Counted from the stretch's first letter, positions 16,026-52,486 are shown. The stretch: 64,000 bases of DNA from an uncultured Clostridia bacterium (GCA_947626815.1 CANQTN010000004.1:13001-77000), one strand, 5' to 3'. A program made the numbers and translations. The notes: a model not told the origin generated them from the letters alone.

Positions 16026-16220
16026 TAATGCTGTCAACTTAAGAAATTGCTCCAGATAATATATTATTTATGCCGTAACAATTCGGGGGGACCAGCAAAT
16101 TACAAATTGTAATGCAAATCTTATAATCTATTATAAAATTTAGTATACAATCTGTTATGTAGCTGGGAGTTACAAATAAATAATATATTATCTGGAGCAA
16201 TTTCTTAAGTTGGCAGCATT
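16026..16220. mobile_element. MITE-like hairpin element, family 1 (E1-type termini), flanked by 8-bp direct repeat GTTCACTT
   Basis: About 45-bp terminal inverted repeats AATGCTGTCAACTTAAGAAATTGCTCCAGATAATATATTATTTAT / rc. Internal conserved core GTAACAATTCGGGGGGACC. Target-site duplications at 16018-16025 and 16221-16228. Confidence 0.7.
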
Positions 16221-16315
16221 GTTCACTTCAAATTCATTCGTTTTTTTACATAATATTTGAAATTTAAAAAAAATTATGATATAATAGGTAACATAATAAT
16301 AAAAGGAGTGTTTTA

Positions 16316-17293
16316 ATGAGATTTGTAGAATTATTAAATGGATTAGATGAAAGTTGGTCAGCTAAAGAAAAAGCCAAATATTTATATGATAGGATTTGCA
16401 AAAATATAACTTATGATGAAAGATTTGCATATGGTAAAAATCCAGAATTATTAAGTGCAATTTATTATAGTGATGTAAGTATACATGATGAAGAAGACAA
16501 AAGAAAAATATGTAGAACTGCTAATTTGTTATATCACCAATTACTAAAAGAAGCAGGAGTAACTTCAAAAGTAATATATAGGAAATCCAATGTTCCAAGG
16601 CCAATTGATATAGAAGATGCAGCTCTAATATTTTGGGATGAGGCTGGAGATAAGTATTATACAAATATTATAGGAGACATTGAGAACTGTAGATTTGGAT
16701 TAAGGACAAATTTTTTTGGAATAACAAAAAATTTATATGAAGAAGCACAAGATGCGAAAGCTATACCAAATGAAGAACTAATGCAAATTGATCAAAAAAC
16801 AGGCTGTATAAGAAGAGATTATAATAATATACTATTTACTCTTTTAGCAGATGAAGTAAAAAATACTGGTAATTTTAAGAAATTTTTGCAAGCACAAGGA
16901 ATTGATACAAGTAACATGTCTAGAGAAGAAATATTAAAAAATAAATTACAATATTTAAATAAATTAATTAAATTTAGAGATCAAACAGCAGGACCAGATG
17001 AAATAAAGAAATTTTATCAAAAATTATTTTGTGCATCAGCAATTGATAAATTTGAAAGCAAAAAATTTAATACATATGAATATATAAAAGAAAATGAAGG
17101 AGAATTAGATATTTTTTCTATTATAGAAATTGACTTAGCAAGTGCACCAATTTATTATATCTATTCTGAAATGGAACAAAGTTATGTACAAATTACACAA
17201 GAAGAACTAAAAGAAAAAATAGATGGATACAGAGAAAGAAAAGGGAAAAAAAGACTAGACGAAAGAAATGAAGCAGAAAATAAAGAAATATAA
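16316..17293 (+). CDS. hypothetical protein; a possible transglutaminase-like Cys motif (KICRTANLLYHQLLKEAGV) gives only weak support
   Basis: 325-aa ORF with RBS AAAGGAG. Bracketed by hairpin elements 16026-16220 and 17303-17448. Confidence 0.4.
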   Translation: MRFVELLNGLDESWSAKEKAKYLYDRICKNITYDERFAYGKNPELLSAIYYSDVSIHDEEDKRKICRTANLLYHQLLKEAGVTSKVIYRKSNVPRPIDIEDAALIFWDEAGDKYYTNIIGDIENCRFGLRTNFFGITKNLYEEAQDAKAIPNEELMQIDQKTGCIRRDYNNILFTLLADEVKNTGNFKKFLQAQGIDTSNMSREEILKNKLQYLNKLIKFRDQTAGPDEIKKFYQKLFCASAIDKFESKKFNTYEYIKENEGELDIFSIIEIDLASAPIYYIYSEMEQSYVQITQEELKEKIDGYRERKGKKRLDERNEAENKEI

Positions 17294-17302
17294 AAATAAA
17301 AT

Positions 17303-17448
17303 GTAACAGTTCACTTGTCACTGGTCAAGGATAATATATTATTTATGCAGTAACAATTCGGGGGGACCAACAAGCTGTATGCAGTTGGGAGTTACAAATA
17401 AATAATATATTATCCTTGACCATTTGTACCATTGATAAGTGATATTAC
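17303..17448. mobile_element. MITE-like hairpin element, family 1 (short variant, GTAACAG-type termini), flanked by 8-bp direct repeat AATAAAAT
   Basis: Arms GGTCAAGGATAATATATTATTTAT / ATAAATAATATATTATCCTTGACC around the core GCAGTAACAATTCGGGGGGACCAACAAGCTGTATGCAGTTGGGAGTTACAA. Target-site duplications at 17295-17302 and 17449-17456. Confidence 0.65.
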
Positions 17449-49527: not shown

Positions 49528-49749
49528 AAAATGAAGCTGTTTCTTTTTTTATATTATAATTAATACAAATAATAGAAAAGTTTGTTCTAAATCAACATTT
49601 ATATTAGAATAAGATTTATTTTTTCTTTCATTGTGCTATATATCATAAAATCAGCAAAAATCAACAAAATAATGCAAATTTAATTGAAAAAAATGTATAA
49701 TTTTGATAAAATTTGAATATAATTAAGTTATAAAGGAATGATAGTAAAA

Positions 49750-51750
49750 ATGAGTGAACCATTAAAAATAAGTATTTTAGACAGAACAGATACACAAGAT
49801 TTTGAGCAATTAAAAGTTTTATTAAAAAAATTTACAATTGATACATATATAAGAAATAAACCTGAATTTTCAGAATTAAAAGGTAGTAAGAAATTTGAAT
49901 TAGTAAATAGCGCAATAAATGAATTTGAAGGAAAAAATGAACTTTGTATATTAACTAATGAAGATGTAAAACAATTAAAAAGAGAAATAGATTTACAAAT
50001 AAGTTCTGCAAAAGAATTGATAGAAAATAGAACAAATGGAAACATAGAAACTAGATATTATGCATTAAAAGATGGCGATAAAATGATTTCTTTTCAACAA
50101 GTTCAACTAGTAAAAGGAAAAAAAGAAAGTGATAAAACTGAAGGATGGAGAAACTTAGCTTATGTAGAGCAAGAGTATGCAGGTAAAAGAGGACAAGTTA
50201 TAGACAGTAGAGGAAATCTACAAAATGGCTTATATAGTGAAATAATTTATGAAGATATAAAACAATGGTTTGAAGAAAACGGAGTAAACTATGAAAGAAC
50301 TTGTACAGGTGTAAATATGTTATCTAACATATTGGCTTATATTAGAGCAAAAGGATTTCTTCCATTTGCCAAAAATGAAAAAAATATATTTTTGGAAAAA
50401 TTTAGGGAGCATGAAGTCGACAGAACAACATTAAGTAAAACATATAAATTATACTGCCAACATATGCAAAGAACGGAACATAAAAATAAAGATGAAATAT
50501 TAGAAGAAATAAAGAGTATAGCGGAATTTGAAGGATTAACAGAAAAACAAAAACAAGGACTAGTGCAATGCTTTCTTAAAGAAGAAGAAAAAGAATTTGA
50601 AATACCTGATGATAAATTGCAAATGTTAAATAAATTAATAGATAAAAATTTACAAAATAGAAGAAACAGTTCAGACTATGGTTTACTACATAGAATTTCT
50701 GGAATGATGACTAATGGACTACAAATAAAGGATAGACATATTAATCAAATTACAAAATCATTTTCACAAGAACAAACCAAAGAGATTGCTTTACAATTTT
50801 TTAAAAAATTAGATCAAGAACTATATGAAAAAGTAAATGAAATTTTAGATGGTAAAAGTGACTTCGATTTTAATATGTATCAGTTAAAAAAAGATGAAGG
50901 TTTTTCAAAAACTAAAAGTAATGGAATGCCAGTACATACAAAAACAGCATGTGTAATGTCAAAAAATGGGGAAAATGCTATTTATGTTCCTTGTAAAGGT
51001 ACTATGGAAGATATTTATTTACTAGTTCATGAATTATCTCATACTTTTGACTTTATTGAAAACGATAATCCTACAAGAAACATGATGGGTGAAGTAACTC
51101 CATACTGCTTTGAAGCAATGCTAAGCCAATATTTATTAGAAAATGATATTGTAACAAAAGAAGATGTTGTAAATAGAGAAAAAAGAGATAGCATAAGTCA
51201 TTATGATGATGGAGTAGAAACATTTGCAAAACTAGAATTAATGAGAATTAAAAAGCAACAAGGAAAAATAAAAAAAGAAGATATTATTCAAATGCAAAGA
51301 AAATATGGAATAACAAATAGACAGATAGGTTACATTTTAGAAAGACTAGTGCAATCAGAACCAAATGTAGACTATAGAGCAAGATATATGATTGCACATC
51401 TAATTTATCCACATTATATAGAGCAATATCAACAAAATCCACAAAAGGCAATACAAACTTTAAAAGAATACTTTAAACAAATAAAATCCAATAATTTAAC
51501 CGAAAGTTTAAAAACACTAGGAATAGAACCAAGTATAGAAAGTATTCCTAAATTAATACAAAAATGTAATATAAGATTACAACATTTAGAACATACAAAA
51601 TTGATTTCAGAACAAGGAAAAAATGGATTTGAAGATTGCATAGAAGATGATAGAACAATTTTATCTTCTGTACAAAATGCAACTAGAAATAGTAATACAT
51701 TAGGAAATGTAAATATAGAAAATACTAACGATGAACAAAACTTAGAATAG
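49750..51750 (+). CDS. large hypothetical protein with an HExxH motif (LVHELSHTFD), a putative zinc-metallopeptidase-like effector; paired with a family-A small protein
   Basis: About 666 aa. The only recognisable feature is HELSH with a downstream E (MMGEVTPYC). The start at 49750 is preferred over 49738 on RBS spacing. Confidence 0.4.
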   Translation: MSEPLKISILDRTDTQDFEQLKVLLKKFTIDTYIRNKPEFSELKGSKKFELVNSAINEFEGKNELCILTNEDVKQLKREIDLQISSAKELIENRTNGNIETRYYALKDGDKMISFQQVQLVKGKKESDKTEGWRNLAYVEQEYAGKRGQVIDSRGNLQNGLYSEIIYEDIKQWFEENGVNYERTCTGVNMLSNILAYIRAKGFLPFAKNEKNIFLEKFREHEVDRTTLSKTYKLYCQHMQRTEHKNKDEILEEIKSIAEFEGLTEKQKQGLVQCFLKEEEKEFEIPDDKLQMLNKLIDKNLQNRRNSSDYGLLHRISGMMTNGLQIKDRHINQITKSFSQEQTKEIALQFFKKLDQELYEKVNEILDGKSDFDFNMYQLKKDEGFSKTKSNGMPVHTKTACVMSKNGENAIYVPCKGTMEDIYLLVHELSHTFDFIENDNPTRNMMGEVTPYCFEAMLSQYLLENDIVTKEDVVNREKRDSISHYDDGVETFAKLELMRIKKQQGKIKKEDIIQMQRKYGITNRQIGYILERLVQSEPNVDYRARYMIAHLIYPHYIEQYQQNPQKAIQTLKEYFKQIKSNNLTESLKTLGIEPSIESIPKLIQKCNIRLQHLEHTKLISEQGKNGFEDCIEDDRTILSSVQNATRNSNTLGNVNIENTNDEQNLE

Positions 51751-51759
51751 GAGTAAAAA

Positions 51760-52116
51760 ATGATCAGTGTAAAAAATGCTAATGCAATGGCAGAAGTCAT
51801 TTATTATTTGAAGGGAATAAGACAGGAAGATTTAAATAAAATACCAAAAAAACTTTTACAATATTTAAATGAAAATGCATCTAAAGAGTATAAGTGTAAT
51901 TTTGATTATAATAAACCTTTAAAAGAATTAAAACTACTTGATGAAACTAGGGGAATTATAGGAATGATATGCTATAATTATTGGTGCATTACAGAAAAAC
52001 AAAAAGAGCAATATATAAAAAAATTAAGTGAAAATGAAAAAAAATATCAAGAAATTTTACATGAATTATATAATCCAGATAATCTTTTTAAGAGAAGGTT
52101 TATCTCTAAAAAATAA
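51760..52116 (+). CDS. small protein, family A (paralog of 203-661 and 59080-59535)
   Basis: 118 aa, with the conserved block IIGMICYNYWCITEKQKEQYI. Its last codons lie inside the family-2 repeat. Confidence 0.5.
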   Translation: MISVKNANAMAEVIYYLKGIRQEDLNKIPKKLLQYLNENASKEYKCNFDYNKPLKELKLLDETRGIIGMICYNYWCITEKQKEQYIKKLSENEKKYQEILHELYNPDNLFKRRFISKK

Positions 52117-52486
52117 ATGAAAAAGTGAATTGAAAGAAATTTAATATAGAAGTTCTTTAATAATTTTATGGAAAATGTTCATGCTCGACATGTAATACTG
52201 TCAACTTAAGAAATTGCTCTAGATAATATATTATTCATGCAGTAACAATTCGGGGGGACCAGCAAATTACAGATTGTAATGCAAATCTTATAATTTATTA
52301 TAAAATTTAGTATACAAGCTGTTATGTAGCTGGGAGTTACAAATAAATAATATATTATCTAGAGCTATTTCTTAAGTTGACAGCATTACATGGCATGAAA
52401 GGGTGCCATAAAATTATTTTAGAACTTCTTATTTAAATCTTCTTGAACGAACTTTTGAATGTATTTTTTTAGAGATACCCCTTGCC
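52095..52486. repeat. family-2 palindromic repeat, second copy, carrying a nested insertion of a family-1 (E1-type) hairpin element at 52193-52387
   Basis: Sequence left and right of the insert is collinear with 22060-22250. The insert has E1 termini TAATACTGTCAAC...GTTGACAGCATT and is flanked by a direct ACATG. Confidence 0.7.

Follow-up and report, generated by a model that had tools for sequence, protein, structure and literature searches.

The DNA analysed here, a stretch of 64,000 nt from an uncultured Clostridia bacterium (hereinafter the window), carries several long, nearly palindromic repeats, and the question that it raises is whether these are mobile elements, and if so what moves them, or structures that are kept for the host. 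A scan of the window for the core GTAACAATTCGGGGGGACCAAC at ≤1 mismatch yields five occurrences, against 0 expected, at 16075, 17350 and 52242 on the plus strand and at 38400 and 43199 on the minus strand, each bracketed on both sides by the 17-mer GATAATATATTATTTAT. Arms of type A are found at 16027, 16195, 45357, 52194 and 52362, and those of type B at 38269, 38447 and 43068; in all, five full copies and one half copy can be located, so that the repeat family announced in the original prediction is real. Copy 1 (16026-16220, plus strand) has type A arms (TAATGCTGTCAACTTAAGAAATTGCTC) that are 98% complementary, a core at 16075-16173 with a long apical hairpin and a covariance-model score of 74 bits. 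Copy 2 (17303-17448, plus strand), the shortest, starts 10 nt past the stop codon of the ORF at 16316-17293 and combines type B arms, the left one with a 13-nt deletion, with a core at 17350-17395 that has a minimal apical loop (90 bits). Copy 3 (38269-38477, minus strand) has perfect type B arms (GTTACAGTCTACTTATCAATGGTACAAATGG) and is flanked by the divergent mutS2 (minus strand) and PP2C phosphatase genes. Copy 4 (43068-43275, minus strand) retains an intact type B terminus at 43068 and has lost its other end, the high-coordinate arm (43241-43275) being truncated and partly duplicated; it lies 3 nt past the rpe stop codon and 7 nt from the stop codon of the convergent ORF at 43282-44628. 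Copy 5 (52193-52387, plus strand) has type A arms and is 95% identical to copy 1. The half copy, previously placed at 45361, actually occupies 45357-45396 (plus strand), 20 nt upstream of the start of the minus-strand ORF 44693-45337, and consists of a type A arm and the first bases of the AT-rich stem, without a core. A covariance-model search found no further copies in the window. The elements are 146-209 bp long, have arms that are 89-98% complementary, contain no ORF of ≥80 aa and, as had been claimed, fold into long predicted hairpins (z −7 to −19; −54 kcal/mol and z −7.3 for copy 2, −110 kcal/mol and z −19.2 for copy 3).

Direct reading of the sequence bears out the perfect 8-bp target-site duplications (TSDs) reported for three of the five full copies, namely GTTCACTT at 16018-16025 and 16221-16228 around copy 1, AATAAAAT at 17295-17302 and 17449-17456 around copy 2, and GATTTAGC at 38261-38268 and 38478-38485 around copy 3; by simple arithmetic, the chance of an exact 8-mer match at a fixed place is ~8e-5 at 26% GC. 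Copy 4 has no TSD, and at the ends of copy 5 only CATG is repeated on both sides, a clean 8-bp duplication being absent. The direct repeats are reproduced at additional copies in other genomes, where a strict test finds 9 perfect and 3 one-mismatch 8-bp TSDs directly outside the GTAAC...GTTAC ends, and inspection by eye adds three more perfect ones (AGAAAATT, CAAAAATT and AACTATTT). TSDs are also seen by eye, in other genomes, around miniature elements that share the same ends and lack the core. Homology between copies stops at the element ends, and the elements are therefore not parts of a larger duplication. The exception to this boundary is copy 5, which lies inside a second palindromic repeat. 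Empty/filled polymorphism was not seen for the window copies: copies 1 and 2 recur in three other samples of the same strain, and at copies 3 and 5 the contigs end. The one filled/empty pair within the window (52108-52505 versus 22055-22255) shows no clean duplication. With terminal inverted repeats, 8-bp duplications and recurrence in other genomes, the original reading as MITE-like transposition is supported; the elements are small and non-coding, their TSD has a fixed length of 8 bp, and dispersed copies are numerous (5 in 64 kb).

The family is present in at least 23 species-level metagenome-assembled genomes (MAGs) of AT-rich gut Clostridia and Bacilli (over 82 stretches from 23 MAG accessions, the richest MAG having at least 13 loci), and 18 metagenome contigs, including some from the human gut, carry the repeat. 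Most arms in the related genomes have the terminus GTAAC(T/A)(A/G)TTCA(G/C), of which the type B arms of the window, starting with GT(A/T)AC, are a diverged form; the MITE arms of the MAG CAOKEO, for instance, are GTAACTATTCACAGGTG and GTAACGATTCAGACG. In its 12-nt form, GTAACTATTCAG, this terminus is also found at the ends of four genuine, single-ORF insertion sequences (ISs) of the IS66 family (ISBst12-like). One of these, on Geobacillus pHTA426, has a 485-aa DDE_Tnp_IS66 ORF, the ends GTATCTATTCAGCCC and GTAACTATTCAGCCC and the 8-bp TSD GACGAGTT; another, the IS of P0079, has the left end GTAACTATTCAGGC, and two 1665-bp ISs of 26-27% GC, which encode P0206 and P0210, have ends that start with GTAACTATTCAGGTG. 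IS66 inverted repeats begin with GTAAGCG and are flanked by 8-bp direct repeats (PMC11946415), and ISDge4, of the ISBst12 group, has the ends GTGACTACTCAGCA and GTAACTGCTCAGCA and an 8-bp direct repeat (PMC12898284). Both marks of the ISBst12 group are found here, the 8-bp direct repeats in the duplications described above, and inverted repeats of the GTAA-initial kind, in the form GT(A/T)AC, in type B and in most arms elsewhere, type A being the exception. Arms of type A, which belong to copies 1 and 5 and to the half copy, terminate in TAATGCTG, lack the GTAAC tip and are seen in this genome only; they alone leave room for an enzyme other than an IS66-type transposase.

Thus, we propose, with a probability of about 0.8, that the elements are MITEs (reduced, non-autonomous DNA transposons) whose partner is an IS66-type (ISBst12-like) transposase encoded elsewhere in the genome. 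The AT-rich ISs that were found match the MITE arms over the first 15-25 nt only, so that no direct parent is identified among them, and tblastn detected no IS66-type transposase in the window or in the ~100 related loci with the repeat; hence we infer the partner from the termini and duplications. Under this proposal, a DDE transposase of the ISBst12-like group would bind both element ends and insert the element through cuts staggered by 8 bp. Within such a transposon, the central module would perhaps act in cis or have a structural role only, and might persist because intact palindromic copies get amplified rather than because each copy serves the host.

With respect to the sites of insertion, the elements lie in AT-rich DNA and often occupy the loop, the top of the stem or the T-tract of a hairpin that was already there and resembles a terminator, or else the middle of a further palindromic repeat, which results in nested elements. 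The rebuilt empty site of copy 1 is a hairpin with a 28-bp stem followed by a T-run (z −10.6), and copy 5 interrupts the loop of the second palindromic repeat (52108-52192 and 52393-52505), an empty copy of which, at 22055-22255, serves as the unfilled reference; the centre of this empty copy resembles elements at two related loci (L074 and L055) that begin with GTTACTATTCACAC. The original prediction that copies sit right after stop codons holds as a tendency (median distance 33.5 nt, with 21 of 48 within 17 nt), but mutS2 was misplaced in its list: the gene occupies 35820-38180 on the minus strand, and copy 3 therefore precedes its start codon by 89 nt, in the gap between two divergent genes, instead of following its stop. 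The proximity to stop codons with frequent hairpin targets, the nesting and the inversion of the hairpin between strains described below are new here.

The most distinctive part of the repeats is their common centre, a hairpin of ~124 nt that leads from an AT-rich stem through a GTAAC/GTTAC stem, an invariant asymmetric loop (AATTCGGGGGGA opposite GA) and a CCAGC/GCTGG stem to a variable hairpin at the apex. Its stems show covariation, both bases having changed in 19 of 40 pairs, and the covariation score is 0.202 versus 0.083 in shuffles (0/500) and ≤0.069 in slid controls. Both arm types of the original prediction are indeed present; what its notion of two mixed types does not capture is that the conserved inner hairpin sits in several kinds of outer shell and is invertible relative to them. 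The core is also present with GC-rich REPIN-like hairpins on either side of it, and in copies whose arms can no longer be recognised. Since core-less MITEs with the same ends transpose too, the conservation of the core is not explained by the transposon model. It is conceivable, if rather doubtful, that the centre is an undescribed functional nucleic-acid module of ~75-125 nt, with GTAAC/GTTAC and CCAGC/GCTGG stems around the invariant loop AAUUCGGGGGGA and a variable apical hairpin, that is carried by different mobile shells (IS66-type MITE arms, REPIN-like doublets, terminator hairpins) across gut Firmicutes; such a module would be a candidate structured RNA, or a single-stranded-DNA or protein-binding site, with an orientation switchable by inversion.

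A related explanation, which we regard as unlikely, is that the centre is a functional structured RNA riding on MITEs, either a 3′-UTR hairpin with a part in transcript termination or stability, or an sRNA present in many copies whose exposed loop (UCCCCCC or, from the opposite strand, GGGGGG) pairs with targets, the host keeping copies for this function. The covarying stems and invariant asymmetric loops, the consistently predicted three-stem fold, and the crowding of copies behind stop codons, with room left before the next start, all speak for this possibility, as do the bracketing of the consensus hairpin by an A-run and a T-run and the persistence of the module in copies without recognisable arms and at loci common to related MAGs. 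However, the elements point both ways with respect to the genes beside them (19 co-directional versus 35 opposite), and the stems covary equally on both strands, G-U and A-C mismatches numbering 23 and 17; the lack of strand preference makes the constraint look like that on a DNA palindrome rather than on one transcribed strand. Furthermore, decay in individual copies reaches the core, where G-runs vary from 5 to 9 and variants like GGAAAAA occur, and at an orthologous locus the element is conserved no better than its flanks. The base of the long hairpin is AU-rich, the T-run appears only in the consensus from other species, a simple scan for intrinsic terminators found no site at copies 1 or 2, and promoter-like hits do not rise above the noise in DNA this rich in AT. 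Rfam searches returned no match at the gathering score in the window and, in five element-bearing loci, nothing beyond tRNAs and miRNA noise below the threshold; the centre, if it is an RNA, would thus be new.

Another explanation, a decidedly improbable one in our estimate, holds that the hairpin is an invertible DNA switch in the manner of invertons, recombination between the inverted arms flipping the asymmetric core and altering what neighbouring genes see. Inversion as such is observed: at one locus, L106, L110 and L112 have flanks collinear with those of L113 and L118 (96% identical), and the central 199 bp with the element are inverted at 97-99% identity, so that both orientations of a segment bounded by inverted repeats exist at the same place (L106 versus L113/L118). 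In the MAG CAOKEO, moreover, the core occurs in both orientations between unlike arms X and Y, with ~6 copies each way. Yet passive inversion of the centre, through template switching or arm-to-arm recombination, is open to any long palindrome, and the two orientations observed here belong to strains 4% apart rather than to a single population; an inverton proper would have a promoter within the segment, an invertase of its own and both orientations in one population.

As for the enzyme, the original prediction named an IS256-, ISL3- or IS6-like partner. These families likewise produce 8-bp duplications, and their usual ends start with GG. The MITE termini are unlike such GG-initial ends and match IS66/ISBst12-type ends over at least 12 bases, and GTAAC(T/A)(A/G)TTCAG together with 8-bp duplications is the signature of single-ORF IS66 (ISBst12-like) elements, which leaves mobilization by one of the three families very improbable. 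HUH/Y1 enzymes are not known to generate 8-bp target duplications. A reading of the repeats as REP/REPIN-type elements mobilised by the IS200/RAYT-like product of the ORF at 8868-9659 could draw on the Y1_Tnp domain of that ORF (E 4.6e-13) and on the inner hairpins that lie between small GC-rich, REP-doublet-like hairpins in some other MAGs, but it is contradicted by the duplications and hardly tenable: the elements are long (150-210 bp), AT-rich, devoid of a GTAG or CGTC tag and flanked by 8-bp TSDs. The Y1 gene, as the original prediction rightly held, is not the partner; no other repeat-bearing locus has it, and it is flanked by unrelated 52-nt inverted repeats (TTTGGGGACAGGCACTA) found in the window only at its two ends.

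The MITEs of the window can be compared with several known systems. Correia and RUP elements generate TA duplications. Correia/nemis of Neisseria and RUP, BOX and SPRITE of Streptococcus pneumoniae resemble the present family as short, hairpin-forming intergenic repeats near gene ends that are able to act on transcripts (PMC3184786), but they differ in ends, duplications and partner families and share no sequence similarity with it. The MITE-like bcr1 of the Bacillus cereus group (~155 bp) is likewise a mobile, non-coding repeat that occupies intergenic DNA in low-GC Firmicutes, is flanked by direct repeats and shows compensatory changes that keep its folded structure (PMC3184786); unlike the 8-bp duplications and single long hairpin with an asymmetric loop found here, bcr1 has 5-bp duplications and two independent stem-loops, and is transcribed. 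REP/REPIN systems with their RAYTs have in common with the window palindromic intergenic repeats, a Y1 enzyme and, in some related copies, flanking REP-like doublets, but REPs are 20-40 bp long, GC-rich, tagged with GTAG/CGTC and without target duplication (PMC3733652), and the present family differs on each count. Invertons, the invertible promoters of gut bacteria, share the segment bounded by inverted repeats that exists in both orientations at the same locus, although here the invertible segment is itself a palindrome. MITEs as such are well known, and the conserved structured centre is the main distinction of this family. With the single-ORF IS66 elements of the ISBst12 group (ISDge4 of Deinococcus geothermalis, the IS66-like element on pHTA426 of Geobacillus kaustophilus and the AT-rich elements that encode P0206 and P0210), the MITEs share the terminus (GTAACTGCTCAG in ISDge4) and the 8-bp target duplication, shown for the Geobacillus element and reported for ISDge4, and they differ in being devoid of a transposase gene and only 0.15-0.35 kb long, as against 1.6-1.7 kb.

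The hairpin elements of the window show the tested defining features of MITEs. With up to one mismatch allowed, the window contains five matches to their conserved 22-nt core, GTAACAATTCGGGGGGACCAAC, where 0 are expected, one in each of copies 1 to 5 (16026-16220, 17303-17448, 38269-38477, 43068-43275 and 52193-52387, respectively), and each of these cores is bracketed by an inverted 17-mer, GATAATATATTATTTAT; a covariance model run on the window recovered the same five copies and no others. Two kinds of outer arm were located by sequence match, namely type A at 16027, 16195, 45357 (the half copy), 52194 and 52362, and type B at 38269, 38447 and 43068. 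Pairwise identity is 95% for copies 1 and 5 (195 nt) and 93% for copies 3 and 4 (183 nt), with predicted folds ranging from -54 kcal/mol (z -7.3, copy 2) to -110 kcal/mol (z -19.2, copy 3), and on this evidence the repeat family of the original prediction stands. In the self-comparison of the window, similarity between copies stops at the element borders, and therefore the copies are not fragments of one larger duplication. The three 8-bp direct repeats claimed in the window are indeed exact and lie immediately outside the inverted repeats; the chance of a single 8-bp match is about 8e-5 at 26% GC (arithmetic from base composition). One end of copy 4 is missing, and copy 5 is flanked by CATG alone on each side. 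The ORF at 16316-17293 (325 aa, no Pfam match) lies between copies 1 and 2, which share one orientation; a composite transposon formed by these copies around the ORF was rejected because each copy has its own duplication. Elsewhere in the window, in-frame tandem repeats lie within ORFs at 1228-1561 (75-nt period), 43904-44047 (18 nt) and 57683-57879 (78 nt).

The inner hairpin of many copies from other species lies between arms of about 31 nt, which end in GTAAC(T/A)(A/G)TTCA(G/C) on one side and in its complement on the other. A strict test directly outside these ends detected 9 perfect and 3 one-mismatch 8-bp duplications, such that the duplications seen in the window are reproduced in other genomes. 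Inspection by eye added AGAAAATT and CAAAAATT in L046, one of the loci from other MAGs and metagenomes that carry the repeat, and, on either side of a core-less element in L050, AACTATTT. Small core-less elements with the same ends also carry 8-bp duplications (for example, one of 88 bp in L072), and therefore it is the ends that form the mobile framework, with the core as one of its possible contents. The type B arms, GTAACAGTTCAC and GTTACAGTCTAC, are linked to the canonical form via an arm of L002, TAACAGTTCACAGGTCAACGGTACAAAAGG. Type A arms end in TAATGCTG and align with the canonical arms only from GTCAAC inward; no such arms were found in other genomes or in JGI metagenomes. Two further candidates were discarded: what looked like the start of a transposase beside a GTTAC end, where contig L074 stops, is half of another palindromic repeat rather than an IS, and a core-less element in L063 with the unlike arms X and Y, considered as the unfilled target of an independent inner unit, is better accounted for by deletion between TTTCTA repeats.

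With respect to the transposase that mobilizes the family, inverted repeats of IS66 elements begin with GTAAGCG and generate 8-bp repeats (PMC11946415), and ISDge4, a single-ORF member of the ISBst12 group, has the ends GTGACTACTCAGCA and GTAACTGCTCAGCA with an 8-bp repeat (PMC12898284). The Geobacillus plasmid pHTA426 encodes a protein of 485 aa whose domains are DDE_Tnp_IS66, zf-IS66 and DUF6444; its ORF is bounded by GTATCTATTCAGCCC and GTAACTATTCAGCCC, with GACGAGTT flanking both sides. Homologues from more AT-rich hosts (transposase P0079) have the left end GTAACTATTCAGGC, and the elements of two other IS66-family transposases, P0206 and P0210, each 1665 bp long with 26-27% GC, end in GTAACTATTCAGGTG / GTAACTATTCAGGTC and GTAACTATTCAGGTG / GTAACTATTCAGAAC, respectively. 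The 12-nt tip is identical between four independent elements of the IS66 family and the MITE arms (GTAACTATTCAGAGG in L016 and GTGACTATTCAGACG in L009), which points to an ISBst12-like IS66 transposase as the most likely partner and argues against the IS256-, ISL3- or IS6-type partner originally proposed. When six IS66-family transposases were used as tblastn queries, neither the window nor any fetched locus gave a match, and a walk through IS66 homologues towards AT-rich hosts yielded IS that have the expected termini but resemble the arms only over the first 15-25 nt. The window also contains a Y1_Tnp (IS200/RAYT-like) ORF at 8868-9659, which encodes 263 aa with HIH and YIHQNP motifs (region 8710-9797), with an unusual G/C-rich run, GGTTCCCCCCAAGGGGCCCAAAAAGGGG, after it. 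This enzyme is unrelated to the MITE family, in line with the original prediction that the partner is probably elsewhere: the inverted repeats around it, of 52 nt (8710-8761 and 9718-9769), are its own and occur nowhere else in the window, and the gene is kept in three other samples and missing from all other repeat loci.

When one genome per species was scanned for the exact 19-mer GTAACAATTCGGGGGGACC, at least 82 stretches were identified in at least 23 MAG accessions, which carry the labels uncultured Clostridium, Clostridia or Bacilli and stem from the guts of rabbits, mice and other hosts, with up to 13 loci from one MAG among the matches listed. The same 19-mer is present in 18 metagenome contigs, several from the human gut, and was found in no viral contigs. 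Alignment of 38 short copies yields a 124-nt consensus that reads AAAAAGTTTnTATATTTTTTATGAA GTAAC AATTCGGGGGGA CCAGC AAGATT ACAGTCTGT up to the loop and ACAGACTGT TCGnA GCTGG GA GTTAC nAATAAAAAATATAnAAACTTTTTT after it. A four-helix hairpin on this alignment is 94.3% paired, with both sides changing in 19 of the 40 pairs and a covariation score of 0.202, compared with 0.083 in shuffles (0/500 reach 0.202) and at most 0.069 with slid partners. In 12 further copies, found by the covariance model in the same loci with no requirement for the exact 19-mer, the cores vary (G-runs of 5 to 9, and one decayed to GGAAAAA) and the P1 stem covaries (GTGAC/GTCAC, ATGAC/GTCAT); therefore, the loop is conserved family-wide, yet single copies decay. 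The apical part is variable, from a minimal loop in copy 2 through AT-rich hairpins in the other window copies to a nested insert of about 150 nt in two MAGs, both from rabbit gut. This insert is GC-richer, contains GCGTAAGCGACCAAACGAGC, GCGATTGGAGCAACTTAC and GGAAGTTGCGACACACAAAG, and sits in the apical loop in either orientation (L006, about 300-640; L014, L017, L022, L024, L060, L067 and L069); it also occurs alone at L031 1331-1477, within its own AT-rich palindrome, and had no match in Rfam.

For elements in tandem intergenic regions, the upstream stop lies at a median distance of 33.5 nt (17 nt or less in 21 of 48) and the next start at a median of 96 nt (minimum 18). Accordingly, the claim that copies follow stop codons holds as a tendency and fails for copy 3, which lies upstream of the start of mutS2 on the minus strand. 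When empty sites were rebuilt computationally and folded, that of copy 1 proved to be the top of a hairpin with a 28-bp stem followed by a T-run (z -10.6); the copies in L024 and L014 lie inside hairpin loops, those in L009 and L066 in or beside terminator-like stems and T-tracts, and the remaining sites are ordinary AT-rich DNA. Copy 5 occupies the loop of P2, the second palindromic repeat of the window, an empty copy of which is at 22055-22255; furthermore, in L050 a core-less MITE is nested in the arm of a core-bearing one, and in human-gut contigs the element lies within a hairpin with a 20-bp stem. Both the position after stops and the nesting are explained if the elements preferentially enter the tops of AT-rich hairpins and insertions into promoters are selected against. 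P2 itself (about 200 bp, with 98-nt arms that are 78% complementary; filled copy 52108-52192 plus 52393-52505) has a centre resembling L074 6644-6768 and L055 3977-4157, which start with GTTACTATTCACAC, and is probably another MITE family with ends of the same type. The duplicated 8-mer of copy 1, GTTCACTT (16018-16025), equals an internal 8-mer of the left arm of copy 2 (17309-17316, GTAACAGTTCACTTGTCA) and forms part of a 19-bp stem with 15965-15983; this may be a coincidence, or else an older element may have left the terminator-like hairpin behind as a remnant. The proposed comparison of insertion sites, made between samples, returned the same arrangement or contigs broken at the repeats, and no empty site. 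In L119-L125, which represent the same strain in other samples, the assemblies break exactly at copies 3 and 5, and in these MAGs the repeats set a limit to how long contigs become.

In MAG CAOKEO, the core is found in both orientations between the arms X and Y in about equal numbers. Moreover, the gut-metagenome loci L106 and L113 have 2 kb of collinear flanks (96%), whereas the central 199 bp that hold the element (L106 5723-5921) match at 99% only when reversed, and L118 shows the same reversed segment relative to L106. Therefore, the hairpin has flipped between strains, either passively, given that palindromes may invert their own centres, or perhaps as an active switch.

Some function of the core is suggested by the invariance of its asymmetric loop in DNA of 25% GC, while the arms and AT-rich stems have diverged, and by its recurrence as a module within unlike shells, namely IS66-type arms, GC-rich REPIN-like doublets and arm-less copies. 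The REPIN-like shells, seen in some MAGs, consist of small GC-rich hairpins, ATGTCCCCACTGGTTCCGGGnTTAAATGGGGACAT or TTGCCAAAAAGGTCCGTCCCCTCTGGCAA, in inverted copies on either side of the inner hairpin (L078 4797-5024; L056, core 4211-4229; L004, L036 and L080), with no 8-bp duplication visible. Furthermore, the arms in MAG CANQTZ have a terminal repeat identical to the ten bases with which the core begins, GTAACAATTC, which suggests an old nested end or a putative internal transposase-binding site. As a working view, we rank first a cis-acting or structural module, which might be retained by selection at the amplification step, and second a function as single-stranded RNA. The latter would share the support from loop invariance, but the orientation of the elements relative to genes is mixed (19 co-directional, 35 opposite), wobble-type mismatches show no strand asymmetry (G-U versus A-C, 23 versus 17), individual copies decay within the core, and at a locus common to three related MAGs conservation of the element does not exceed that of the flanks, the apical loop being less conserved. 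Simple scans of the elements detected no terminator, and promoter signals only at noise level. Searches of Rfam revealed no family in the window at gathering score or in five loci with the element at E up to 1, and the core sequence appeared in no paper in a full-text literature search.

Intergenic regions are shaped by MITEs, which also cause breaks in metagenome assemblies, as they do here, and can change how neighbouring genes are expressed. The present family provides a repeat signature for poorly known AT-rich gut Clostridia and Bacilli, human-gut members included, and ties it to ISBst12-like IS66 transposases, the biology of which is little studied. Should the conserved asymmetric core turn out to be functional, transposition would have spread a new structured motif, which might also exemplify an inversion-flipped hairpin. 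The family belongs to a known kind of repeat; its moderate interest lies in the core, in the diversity of its shells and in the inversion. Among other known systems, dif/Xer sites show only a vague AT-rich likeness; integron attC sites were rejected given the lack of GTTRRRY boxes and the presence of duplications, and IS200/IS605 PATEs because those have neither inverted ends nor duplications. The elements likewise do not conform to REP/RAYT systems. In contrast, the ends and duplication length of the family are the same as in ISBst12-type IS66 elements. Terminator-like and promoter-bearing MITEs are already known, and bcr1 of the Bacillus cereus group is a repeat with compensatory changes that keep its fold (PMC3184786), as is the case in the present family.
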